Under the pieces are notes generated by a model. The model was given only the letters and a program-made list of their open reading frames with translations, was not told where the DNA came from and ran no database searches. 64,000 nucleotides of DNA from Escherichia coli (lineage in GTDB: Bacteria; Pseudomonadota; Gammaproteobacteria; Enterobacterales; Enterobacteriaceae). The DNA lies in NCBI RefSeq assembly GCF_045037415.1, contig NZ_CP173438.1; one strand, written 5' to 3'. Positions 44,283-49,492 of this stretch are shown here, one piece after another. The first letter of the stretch is position 1; the number at the start of each line of letters is the position of its first letter. Both the position numbers and the translations under genes were made by a program.

Positions 44283-44706
44283 ATCCCCTCCAGAAATATG
44301 TGACTTATTCTTTACGCTGGCAGTATAACGGGAAAGGCCTGCTAATACGTGATGGCATCACATTTAAGCATGGCAAATGTCTGAAAAATGAGCGAATAAT
44401 CGCGTTATACTCCCTCTTGCTGATAAGCCTGCAAAAACAACAAAATCAAATAATTAGCATGATAAATTATTTTTTATTACGCCTAAAGGATTAAATCTTT
44501 CGCTTGCACTACACTGTCAATCAGACAAATGACTATATGGGGCAACCCGCTGTTGCCCTAAATCAAATTTACTGGATTTATTTATCTGGCGAATGATTTG
44601 CCTTCGTTTTTAAAATAGCCGCGCATTATTTCCGTCGTCACTTTTTTACGACGACCCTATAAAACGACCATATTTTTCACAGGGTCAATTTTTAATTGAG
44701 GTGGAT

Positions 44707-45489: not shown

Positions 45490-45665
45490 AGCTAAGCCAC
45501 ATATTGCCACTGGCGCAAGGAGCGTGCAGGGGGCGGCCAATCGCCGCCGCCCCCTGCACCCCCGGGCTCTGGCGAACAAAATCGCCGCTGCGCGGTGCCC
45601 TCGACTTATCCCTTACGGCTACCGGGTCGGCGATTTTGACGCCACCAACACCGGTGCGGTTTGTA
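45490..45665. other. GC-rich, highly structured intergenic element (nested perfect hairpins)
   Basis: 14-bp perfect stem GTGCAGGGGGCGGC/GCCGCCCCCTGCAC and 10-bp stem AAAATCGCCG/CGGCGATTTT in an otherwise AT-rich intergenic region. Confidence 0.5.
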
Positions 45666-45816
45666 ATTAAAGCGCAAGAATATCTTTAAATGAAAATGAA
45701 TACCCTACCGATCCTTATGCATAACATTTCCTTTTAATTGCAACTTTACTCGTCCTTCCGCTTTCAGTAGTGTGTCATCGCGCATTTCGAATCTTCTTTG
45801 CAAGGACTGGGTTTTC

Positions 45817-46716
45817 ATGTTTTCTGGGCTGTTAATCATTCTGGTTCCCCTGATTGTGGGTTACCTCATTCCGCTTCGCCAAAAAGCTGCATTAAGAGTT
45901 ATTAATCAGCTCTTAAGCTGGATGGTTTACCTTATTCTCTTTTTTATGGGTATCAGTCTGGCGTTTCTCGATAACCTCGCCAGTAACTTGTTGGCAATTC
46001 TGCATTATTCTGCCGTCAGTACTACCGTTATTTTACTGTGTAATATTGCCGCCCTGATGTGGCTGGAGCGCGGCCTGCCATGGAGCAACCACCATCAGCA
46101 AGAAAAACTCCCGTCGCGTATTGCGATGGCGCTGGAGTCGCTAAAACTGTGCGGCGTAGTAGTGATTGGTTTTGCCATTGGTCTGAGTGGACTGGCTTTC
46201 TTACAACACGCGACCGAAGCCAGTGAATACACCTTAATTCTGCTGCTTTTCCTCGTCGGTATTCAGTTGCGCAATAATGGCATGACCTTAAAGCAGATTG
46301 TCCTTAATCGCCGGGGAATGATTGTCGCCGTGGTGGTGGTTGCCAGTTCATTAATTGGTGGTTTAATTAACGCCTTTATTCTTGATCTTCCCATCAATAC
46401 CGCGCTGGCAATGGCCTCCGGTTTCGGCTGGTATTCTCTTTCCGGTATTTTATTGACCGAATCTTTTGGTCCGGTAATCGGGAGCGCGGCGTTTTTTAAT
46501 GATCTGGCCCGTGAGCTGATTGCTATTATGTTAATCCCTGGGCTGATTCGCCGTAGCCGCTCTACTGCACTGGGCTTATGCGGTGCGACGTCGATGGATT
46601 TCACCCTGCCCGTTCTTCAACGTACAGGCGGGCTGGATATGGTCCCGGCGGCGATTGTTCACGGTTTTATTCTTAGTCTGTTAGTGCCGATTCTCATCGC
46701 CTTTTTCTCTGCATAA
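45817..46716 (+). CDS. lysO: lysine exporter LysO
   Basis: MFSGLLIILVPLIVGYLIPLRQK...; polytopic membrane protein, 299 aa from this start. Confidence 0.9.
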   Translation: MFSGLLIILVPLIVGYLIPLRQKAALRVINQLLSWMVYLILFFMGISLAFLDNLASNLLAILHYSAVSTTVILLCNIAALMWLERGLPWSNHHQQEKLPSRIAMALESLKLCGVVVIGFAIGLSGLAFLQHATEASEYTLILLLFLVGIQLRNNGMTLKQIVLNRRGMIVAVVVVASSLIGGLINAFILDLPINTALAMASGFGWYSLSGILLTESFGPVIGSAAFFNDLARELIAIMLIPGLIRRSRSTALGLCGATSMDFTLPVLQRTGGLDMVPAAIVHGFILSLLVPILIAFFSA

Positions 46717-46749
46717 TACCTCTCTGGCGGTAGATCTCTGCCGCCAAAA

Positions 46750-46763
46750 TTGCGCTAAATCAA
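46750..46763 (+). promoter_or_regulatory. candidate FNR half-site pair upstream of hcp
   Basis: TTGCGCTAAATCAA approximates TTGAT-N4-ATCAA; hcp is known to be FNR-dependent. Confidence 0.3.
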
Positions 46764-46859
46764 TCTCCCTTAAAGTTGCATTAAAAATCTCTTTTATCCC
46801 CGCGTTAAGCGTCTTAACCTTAAACATGTATATTAAATATAACTTTAAAAGGTGTGATC

Positions 46860-48512
46860 ATGTTTTGTGTGCAATGTGAACAAACTATCCGTACTCCGGC
46901 AGGAAACGGCTGCTCATACGCGCAGGGGATGTGTGGTAAAACGGCGGAAACCTCTGACCTTCAGGATTTACTCATCGCGACGCTGCAAGGGCTTTCGGCC
47001 TGGGCAGTGAAAGCACGTGAATACGGCATCATCAACCACGATGTAGACAGCTTTGCGCCACGTGCCTTTTTCTCAACCCTGACCAACGTTAACTTCGATT
47101 CTCCGCGTATTATCGGCTACGCTCGTGAAGCGATTGCCCTGCGCGAGGCGCTGAAAGCACAATGCCTGGCTGTAGATGCCAACGCCCGCGTCGATAACCC
47201 GATGGCTGACCTGCAACTGGTGAGCGACGATCTCGGCGAGCTGCAACGTCAGGCAGCAGAATTTACCCCTAACAAAGATAAAGCGGCGATTGGCGAAAAC
47301 ATTCTCGGCCTGCGTCTGCTGTGCCTGTATGGCCTGAAAGGTGCGGCGGCCTATATGGAACACGCGCATGTTCTCGGTCAATACGACAACGATATTTATG
47401 CCCAGTACCATAAAATCATGGCGTGGCTGGGGACCTGGCCTGCCGATATGAACGCGCTTCTTGAGTGTTCAATGGAAATCGGCCAGATGAACTTCAAAGT
47501 GATGAGCATTCTGGACGCAGGCGAAACCGGTAAATACGGTCACCCGACCCCAACCCAGGTCAATGTCAAAGCGACGGCAGGTAAATGCATCCTGATTTCC
47601 GGTCACGATCTCAAAGATCTCTACAACCTGCTGGAACAGACCGAAGGCACGGGCGTTAATGTCTACACCCACGGCGAAATGCTGCCTGCGCATGGTTACC
47701 CGGAGCTGCGTAAATTCAAGCATCTGGTCGGTAACTACGGCAGCGGCTGGCAGAATCAGCAAGTGGAGTTCGCTCGTTTCCCAGGCCCCATCGTGATGAC
47801 CTCGAACTGCATCATCGACCCAACCGTAGGCGCTTATGACGATCGTATCTGGACCCGCAGCATCGTTGGCTGGCCGGGTGTGCGCCATCTGGATGGCGAA
47901 GATTTCTCTGCGGTCATTGCCCAGGCGCAACAGATGGCGGGCTTCCCGTACAGCGAAATTCCGCACCTGATCACCGTGGGCTTTGGTCGCCAGACACTGC
48001 TTGGCGCAGCCGATACGCTGATTGATCTGGTGAGCCGTGAAAAACTGCGTCATATCTTCCTGCTTGGCGGCTGTGACGGCGCACGCGGCGAGCGTCACTA
48101 CTTCACCGATTTCGCCACCAGCGTGCCGGATGACTGCCTGATCCTGACCCTCGCTTGCGGTAAATATCGCTTTAATAAACTTGAGTTTGGCGATATCGAA
48201 GGTCTGCCGCGTCTGGTAGATGCTGGTCAGTGTAACGATGCTTACTCAGCAATTATTCTGGCGGTAACGCTGGCAGAGAAACTGGGCTGCGGAGTCAACG
48301 ATCTGCCGCTGTCGCTGGTGCTCTCCTGGTTTGAACAGAAAGCGATTGTCATTCTGCTGACGCTGCTTTCTCTGGGTGTGAAAAATATCGTCACCGGCCC
48401 GACTGCACCTGGTTTCCTGACACCAGACCTGCTGGCGGTGCTGAACGAGAAATTCGGCCTGCGTTCTATCACCACTGTTGAAGAAGACATGAAGCAACTG
48501 TTGAGCGCGTAA
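46860..48512 (+). CDS. hcp: hybrid-cluster protein (hydroxylamine reductase)
   Basis: [27 protein letters not shown]... N-terminal Cys cluster. Confidence 0.96.
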
Positions 48513-48523
48513 GGAGTTTGTCG

Positions 48524-49492
48524 ATGACGATGCCAACGAATCAATGCCCGTGGCGGATGCAGGTTCATCACATTACGCAAGAAACGCCGGATGTGTGGAC
48601 GATTTCCCTGATTTGCCACGATTACTACCCGTATCGCGCCGGGCAATATGCGCTGGTCAGCGTGCGAAACTCAGCAGAAACGCTGCGTGCTTACACCATT
48701 TCCTCCACGCCAGGCGTGAGTGAATACATCACCCTGACTGTGCGGCGGATTGATGACGGTGTCGGCTCCCGGTGGCTGACGCGCGATGTAAAACGCGGTG
48801 ATTATCTCTGGCTTTCGGACGCGATGGGGGAATTTACCTGCGACGATAAAGCAGAAGATAAATTCCTGTTGCTGGCGGCAGGCTGCGGCGTCACGCCGAT
48901 TATGTCGATGCGTCGCTGGCTGGCGAAGAACCGTCCACAGGCCGATGTGCAGGTGATCTACAACGTGCGTACGCCGCAGGATGTGATTTTCGCCGATGAG
49001 TGGCGTAACTATCCGGTAACGCTGGTGGCGGAAAATAACGTTACCGAAGGCTTTATCGCTGGTCGTCTCACTCGCGAACTGCTGGCAGGTGTCCCTGATT
49101 TAGCCTCACGTACCGTGATGACCTGTGGCCCTGCTCCATATATGGATTGGGTAGAGCAGGAAGTGAAAACGCTCGGCGTGACGCGTTTCTTTAAAGAGAA
49201 ATTCTTCACCCCAGTAGCGGAAGCGGCGACCAGCGGTCTGAAATTCACCAAACTGCAACCGGCACGAGAATTTTACGCTCCGGTTGGCACCACGCTACTG
49301 GAGGCGCTGGAAAGCAATAACGTTCCGGTTGTCGCCGCCTGCCGTGCGGGTGTTTGCGGCTGCTGTAAGACGAAAGTGATTTCCGGTGAATATACGGTGA
49401 GCAGCACAATGACGCTGACCGACGCCGAAATCGCTGAAGGTTACGTACTGGCCTGCTCATGCCATCCGCAGGGGGATTTGGTTTTCGCATAA
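48524..49492 (+). CDS. hcr: NADH oxidoreductase for Hcp
   Basis: MTMPTNQCPWRMQVHHITQETPDVW...; C-terminal 2Fe-2S ferredoxin Cys motif (CRAGVCGCC). Confidence 0.95.
   Translation: MTMPTNQCPWRMQVHHITQETPDVWTISLICHDYYPYRAGQYALVSVRNSAETLRAYTISSTPGVSEYITLTVRRIDDGVGSRWLTRDVKRGDYLWLSDAMGEFTCDDKAEDKFLLLAAGCGVTPIMSMRRWLAKNRPQADVQVIYNVRTPQDVIFADEWRNYPVTLVAENNVTEGFIAGRLTRELLAGVPDLASRTVMTCGPAPYMDWVEQEVKTLGVTRFFKEKFFTPVAEAATSGLKFTKLQPAREFYAPVGTTLLEALESNNVPVVAACRAGVCGCCKTKVISGEYTVSSTMTLTDAEIAEGYVLACSCHPQGDLVFA

Follow-up and report, generated by a model that had tools for sequence, protein, structure and literature searches.

The 143-bp region between lysO and hcp in Escherichia coli (46717-46859 of the window, by which is meant the whole 64,000-nucleotide stretch of DNA analysed here) raises the question of whether an FNR-like box and an AT-rich imperfect palindrome noticed in it, in a first-pass annotation of the sequence, are the elements that place the downstream gene under anaerobic and NO-responsive control. 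A second question is how far either element can be recognized from its sequence. This region is, with a probability of about 0.93, the promoter of the E. coli hcp-hcr operon under combined FNR and NsrR control, and the arrangement set out below is the explanation that best accommodates the evidence. This control region is already known, well studied and ordinary; expression of hcp is documented to be FNR-dependent, repressed by NsrR and induced by nitrate, nitrite and NO, and hcp is reportedly also subject to regulation by OxyR. The promoter represents a textbook case of combined oxygen and NO control, in use as an in vivo NO reporter, and matters little as a discovery. Its re-analysis is useful mainly as a calibration, since in this window the NsrR site can be called from sequence alone and the FNR box cannot.

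The lysO-hcp locus

The open reading frame upstream of the intergenic region, lysO, stops at 46716, and the 401 bases around the site match 5,424 of 5,426 complete E. coli genomes at 95-100% identity. Both lysO and hcp are the RefSeq features annotated under the matching E. coli DNA (100%-identical matches in the case of hcp), and K-12 MG1655 carries b0874 (lysO) and b0873 (hcp) in the same order and separated by the same 143-bp gap, such that the RefSeq annotation and K-12 b0873 agree with the earlier identification of the downstream gene as hcp. The features of the region are collected in Table 1. A GTG at 46854, given as the hcp start in a mechanical list of open reading frames, was rejected in favour of the annotated ATG at 46860, which is preceded by a Shine-Dalgarno sequence. 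The ATG of hcr lies 11 nt past the hcp stop codon, with AAGGAG just ahead of it.

Pairwise alignment of the window with K-12 revealed five differences in 191 bases, three of which are intergenic (46737, 46782, and 46790). The FNR box, the main NsrR palindrome, the candidate NarL/NarP site, the -10-like hexamer and the Shine-Dalgarno sequence are all identical to K-12. Position 46782, which is T in the window and in CFT073 and G in K-12, falls inside the half-site of a second NsrR-like element (see below). In the neighbouring aqpZ-lysO spacer (∼45627-45630), K-12 MG1655 carries a 76-bp insert that the window lacks; the insert is strongly self-pairing (-36.7 kcal/mol), has a TCGG repeat on its flanks and probably represents a small repetitive extragenic element whose presence varies among strains.

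Table 1. Features of the hcp-hcr control region and operon, in window coordinates
Feature	Position	Strand	Basis
Candidate NarL/NarP 7-2-7 site TACCTCTctGGCGGTA, centre 46724.5 (-104.5 if the start is 46829)	46717-46732		two mismatches to TACYYMTNNAKRRGTA
FNR box TTGCGCTAAATCAA, centre 46756.5 (-72.5)	46750-46763		sequence, K-12 identity, ChIP-seq, matrix, conservation
Second NsrR-like element AAGTTGCATTAAAAATCTCTTTT with strong left half-site AAGTTGCATTA, centre ∼-45	46773-46795		NsrR matrix, rank 2
Putative -10 hexamer TAACCT	46815-46820	+	TAnnnT at fixed offset from FNR box; T46815 invariant
NsrR 11-1-11 operator AACATGTATATTAAATATAACTT, ∼-6 to +17, centre +6	46823-46845		ChIP-seq of identical CFT073 sequence, matrix, conservation
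Implied transcription start	46829	+	arithmetic from FNR centre 46756.5 and -72.5 (Myers 2013, Table 1, citing Filenko 2005)
Shine-Dalgarno AGGTG, 5 nt ahead of hcp ATG	46850-46854	+	read in sequence; conserved
hcp, hybrid cluster protein, 550 aa	46860-48512	+	open reading frame list; RefSeq of identical E. coli DNA; length as K-12 b0873
hcr, NADH oxidoreductase partner, second gene of operon	48524-49492	+	open reading frame list; ATG at 48524

The FNR box

The FNR-like box had been placed exactly by the first-pass annotation, and it agrees with TTGAT-N4-ATCAA at 8 of the 10 specified positions. Consensus scans were of little help with either element. When up to two mismatches were allowed, the FNR consensus matched the window 40 times with 28.2 matches expected by chance, and a 19-mer NsrR consensus with up to three mismatches matched 13 times with 8.65 expected, neither excess being significant. 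Consensus-with-mismatch scans were replaced by leave-one-out weight matrices combined with conservation; the FNR matrix was trained on 61 published ChIP-bound sites and the NsrR matrix on 25 published 11-1-11 sites, hcp being left out of each, and every position of the window was scored.

With the FNR matrix the box reaches 13.0 bits and ranks fourth in the window, which is within the range of the training sites (11.9-21.8 bits) but weak, and 1.37 matches of at least this score are expected per random 64 kb. The sequence match alone therefore proves nothing. It is conservation, fixed spacing and published ChIP-seq that take the box beyond chance; of the checks suggested in the first-pass annotation, the FNR box stands up on geometry and conservation, while its bare motif score is weak. 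The FNR ChIP-seq data from K-12 list for hcp a predicted site, TTGATTTAGCGCAA, which is the reverse complement of 46750-46763 and is marked as located at a ChIP-seq peak for FNR (Myers 2013, Table S6); the same study gives the hcp FNR site as centred at -72.5 with FNR-dependent expression, citing Filenko, Browning and Cole 2005 (Myers 2013, Table 1).

The top FNR matrix match in the window is found elsewhere, in the ybjD-aqpZ intergenic region upstream of aqpZ (TTGCCCTAAATCAA, 44553-44566, 14.0 bits), and is one base off the hcp box. The same sequence is listed as the aqpZ/ybjD site and flagged as bound in ChIP-seq (Myers 2013, Table S6), and a NarL 7-2-7-like match, TACGCCTAAAGGATTA, lies 74 bp from it at 44478-44493.

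The NsrR operator

The palindrome, which had been placed near 46815-46840, is real and lies inside the region 46750-46850 indicated for it, but its coordinates were about 8 bp off: AACATGTATATTAAATATAAC occupies 46823-46843, and the full repeat, a 23-mer of two 11-bp arms around a central T, extends to 46845. With the leave-hcp-out matrix the repeat scores 26.6 bits, which is above the 20.7-bit median of the training sites, ranks first among 63,978 positions and was reached in none of 200 random 64-kb sequences. The NsrR site can thus be picked out by a motif scan in its own right.

Published data on E. coli CFT073 lead to the same site. The sequence AAGTTATATTTAATATACATGTT, which is the reverse complement of 46823-46845, is the second-best 11-1-11 NsrR site in that genome (ln P -23.87) and is positive in ChIP-seq (Mehta 2015, Table 4), so the resemblance to the hcp-hcr NsrR operator that had been proposed for the palindrome is in fact identity with the published hcp site. 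The NsrR ChIP-seq summit lies 22 bp upstream of the hcp start codon in CFT073, and nitrate induces hcp 44-fold (Mehta 2015). In a Salmonella nsrR mutant hcp mRNA is up 284-fold, and an hcp promoter-lacZ plasmid serves as a routine reporter for NsrR derepression by cytoplasmic NO. Comparison of hcp upstream regions from eight enterobacteria had earlier revealed two blocks of conservation: one resembled an FNR site, and the other, further downstream, was an inverted repeat proposed as the NsrR motif (Rodionov 2005). Both sites in the window are hence the published FNR and NsrR sites of hcp, which supports the anaerobic and NO-responsive control that had been suggested for the gene.

The third-best match to the NsrR matrix in the window, ACATTTCCTTTTAATTGCAACTT (45724-45746), lies ∼70 bp upstream of the lysO start codon; it scores 16.2 bits, more than the 13.9 bits that random sequences reach on average as their maximum.

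Conservation and spacing across Enterobacterales

A collection with one genome per species yielded 120 hcp loci when searched with a degenerate DNA pattern for the N-terminal part of Hcp, which is conserved. The best FNR match is TTGCGCTAAATCAA or a variant with one or two changes in 40 of the 41 Enterobacteriaceae loci, the lone exception (L047) being one for which only 79 bp upstream of the ATG is present. In 39 of the 41 the centre of the best NsrR match lies 76.5-77.5 bp downstream of the FNR centre; the distance from site to ATG, unlike this spacing, varies by up to 6 bp. Both sites are also retained in Yersinia, Serratia, and Pectobacterium, at a spacing of 77.5-79.5 bp and with NsrR half-sites that are changed in sequence yet keep their pattern (e.g., AACAAGCATTATAAATGCAACTT). 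An NsrR site of at least 20 bits, 24-30 bp ahead of the ATG, is present in essentially all Enterobacterales loci, and every sampled genus of the Enterobacterales had an NsrR site. When 55 distinct Enterobacterales promoters were aligned with MAFFT, mean identity to the window was 0.96 in the FNR box and 0.88 in the NsrR site, with 0.50-0.65 in the spacers and at the lysO 3′ end. Conserved spacing, and not conserved sequence alone, allows the geometry of the promoter to be recovered without experiments.

Transcription start and promoter core

A TAnnnT hexamer (TAACCT, TATGCT, TACCCT, or TAATCT) starts exactly 65 nt after the start of the FNR box in 51 of 57 Enterobacterales loci, and no other TAnnnT offset recurs in more than 16 loci; in these 57 loci the offset of the NsrR site from the start of the FNR box drifts between 72 and 78 nt. 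The distance from the FNR-box centre to the start of the hexamer is fixed at 58.5 bp across genera. TAACCT as a -10 element predicts a start at 46827-46829, which is within 2 nt of the start implied by the published -72.5 position of the FNR site, such that the conserved hexamer and the published start, whose compatibility with the proposed positions the first-pass annotation had left to be checked, fit one another. The start site and the -10 hexamer are given here as putative. If they are correct, the NsrR site begins 3 bp past the -10-like hexamer and covers 46827-46829. A generic scan of 46600-46950 for sigma-70 promoters and terminators found nothing, including no consensus promoter, a result that is uninformative because an activator-dependent promoter is expected to lack one.

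Alternative explanations

That the FNR-like box is a chance match without function, anaerobic control of hcp being exerted elsewhere or indirectly, is what its modest score and the consensus scan would by themselves allow. This is nevertheless extremely improbable, given that the box is near-invariant across ∼28 genera in which its flanks diverge, that its distances to the -10-like hexamer and to the NsrR site are fixed and that the identical K-12 sequence lies at an FNR ChIP-seq peak. The palindrome might likewise be AT-rich core-promoter or initially transcribed DNA, or a binding site for IHF or Fis, and no dedicated NsrR operator; it is indeed AT-rich and overlaps the start site, and the 19-mer scan did not rise above chance. 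A matrix built from other NsrR sites, however, puts it first in the window at a score never reached by chance, the NsrR ChIP-seq summit lies on identical sequence, 22 bp ahead of the ATG, the substitutions in other genera such as Yersinia and Serratia retain the NsrR half-site pattern, and no Fis, H-NS, or IHF overlap is given for the hcp FNR site (Myers 2013), all of which leaves this explanation very improbable. An inverted repeat in this position would also be transcribed (∼+1 to +17) and could in principle act as an RNA hairpin in the hcp 5′ UTR that controls translation or stability. The predicted fold of 46829-46880 is, however, -5.4 kcal/mol (z-score 0.09), a stability that 90 of 200 shuffled sequences equal or exceed; on these grounds a role of the palindrome as an RNA structure was rejected, and the probability of this explanation is close to nil.

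The remaining alternative concerns the polymerase: hcp might be transcribed mainly from another promoter by an alternative sigma factor, sigma-E, in which case the -72.5/+6 geometry would be irrelevant. No sigma-70 ChIP peak was seen at hcp-hcr, and Rhodius 2006 is cited for dependence on sigma-E (Myers 2013), to which the failure of the scan to return a sigma-70 consensus promoter may be added. On the other hand, neither hcp, ybjW nor b0873 appears in the main text of that article (Rhodius 2006), and by eye no arrangement resembling GGAACTT-N16-TCAAA is present in 46717-46859. The fixed position of TAnnnT relative to the box, seen in 51 of 57 loci, is what would be predicted for a sigma-70 promoter that depends on an activator, and the cultures in which the sigma-70 peak was absent had no source of NO, so that repression by NsrR could itself account for its absence. 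Transcription by sigma-E from elsewhere is therefore considered improbable, and an FNR-activated, NsrR-repressed promoter at the sites in Table 1 remains the preferred reading.

A second NsrR-like element

Rank 2 in the 64-kb window with the leave-hcp-out NsrR matrix (20.4 bits) is held by AAGTTGCATTAAAAATCTCTTTT, of which only the left half-site is good. The element is located between the FNR box and the -35 region, with its centre 27.5 bp downstream of the former, and it takes in an A5 tract as well as the CTTTT that is conserved in the -35 region. Its left half-site was previously listed as an 11-mer, AAGTTGCATTA, that is a possible NsrR site (Mehta 2015, Table 2). Its occurrence is patchy: of 57 Enterobacterales loci, only 20 score 12.5 bits or more. 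Strong versions are seen in E. coli, Trabulsiella, Mangrovibacter, Kluyvera, Yersinia, Pectobacterium, and Brenneria, and in Salmonella and Enterobacter the element has decayed. Nearly all loci have the neighbouring AAAA...CCTTTT, which may be no more than UP-element and -35 DNA. The G found at 46782 in K-12 weakens the AAGTTGCATTA half-site.

It is doubtful, though worth entertaining, that 46773-46795 is a working auxiliary NsrR operator and that the T/G difference at 46782 tunes NO gating across E. coli lineages. If this were so, the hcp promoters of E. coli, Yersinia, Pectobacterium, Trabulsiella, and Mangrovibacter would each carry two NsrR sites and those of Salmonella and Enterobacter only one, and NsrR at the second site would perhaps compete with the alpha subunit of the FNR-recruited polymerase.

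The candidate NarL/NarP site and the lysO 3′ hairpin

Nitrate/nitrite induction of hcp is NarL/NarP-dependent (Rodionov 2005), and a candidate site, TACCTCTctGGCGGTA, is found immediately downstream of lysO. A scan for the NarL 7-2-7 arrangement (inverted TACYYMT heptamers with a 2-bp spacer, up to two mismatches) gave 3 matches in the window with 2.28 expected, which is not above chance. The site is conserved in most Enterobacteriaceae, but its right heptamer doubles as the left arm of a hairpin at the 3′ end of lysO. Its predicted position at -104.5 agrees with the NarL/NarP position reportedly given by Chismon and colleagues (2010). NarL and NarP probably act from this sequence.

The hairpin itself (TGGCGGTAG/CTGCCGCCA, 46725-46746) has a G+C-rich, 9-bp stem, starts 8 nt past the lysO stop codon and ends 3 nt ahead of the FNR box. 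Of 39 distinct Enterobacteriaceae sequences, 35 contain it, with a folding energy of about -16 kcal/mol, and pairing holds in 97.8% of cells (31 genera or species) vs. 22-78% when the partner columns are slid; covariation is limited to U·G/U-A/C-G and GC/AU/CG. The hairpin lacks a U-tract and is therefore not a canonical terminator, and since its U·G pair works only in RNA from the + strand, it is probably a 3′ structure of the lysO mRNA.

Proposed mechanism of regulation

In the absence of oxygen, a dimer of FNR would bind 46750-46763, centred 72.5 bp upstream of the start, and from this upstream position of the class I type would recruit RNA polymerase to a weak core promoter whose -10 element is most likely TAACCT, presumably by a class I contact with the polymerase alpha subunit. 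The iron-sulfur repressor NsrR, bound at 46823-46845, would cover the start site; as the repeat starts 3 bp after the -10 element, bound NsrR would be expected to block initiation physically, by steric occlusion. Damage to the NsrR cluster by NO would release the repressor from the DNA and allow FNR-dependent transcription to go on, and NarL/NarP, probably at 46717-46732, would add a nitrate/nitrite boost. The net logic proposed is that of a two-input switch, with transcription confined to conditions that lack oxygen and supply NO.

Comparison with known systems

Outside Enterobacterales, the hcp genes of Vibrionales and Aeromonas correspond to that of E. coli in gene and N-terminus, but most Vibrio hcp loci have neither an FNR box nor an NsrR site, which fits the control by NorR2 and sigma-54 to which Vibrio hcp has been assigned (Rodionov 2005). 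The Aeromonas hcp genes have an FNR box of consensus strength, TTGATCTGCATCAA, that lies ∼108 bp ahead of the ATG, and they are without a good NsrR site. At the place of the second NsrR-like element, six Aeromonas loci (L011, L023, L035, L045, L055, and L059) have AATTGGCAAATTGAATGCCTATT, which holds GG-N10-GC and resembles a sigma-54 -24/-12 promoter. A 2026 preprint that contains the text "hcp promoter" concerns Bacteroides HcpR and is not relevant here.

Most FNR promoters are of class II, with the activator at -41.5, unlike hcp. In class I promoters dependent on FNR or CRP, the activator is centred near -61.5, -72.5, or -82.5, and hcp likewise has its activator ∼72.5 bp upstream, which suggests for hcp the same class I contact.

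The NsrR operators of ytfE and hmp (11-1-11, consensus AAGATGCATTT-N-AAATGCATCTT) share their architecture and their repressor with the hcp site, and in CFT073 the ytfE site ranks above that of hcp, which is second. The hcp site differs from those of ytfE and hmp in being more AT-rich and in having TAT for GCA in the half-site core, and also in its setting, as it lies over the start of an FNR-dependent promoter whereas the ytfE and hmp promoters are constitutive. The hcp NsrR site of CFT073 is identical to the site in the window. The K-12 hcp-hcr promoter, reportedly described by Filenko and colleagues in 2005 and 2007 and by Chismon and colleagues in 2010 (FNR at -72.5, NsrR over the start and NarL/NarP upstream), is the same locus; the three intergenic single-base differences from the window fall outside its main elements, and the named elements are identical base for base.
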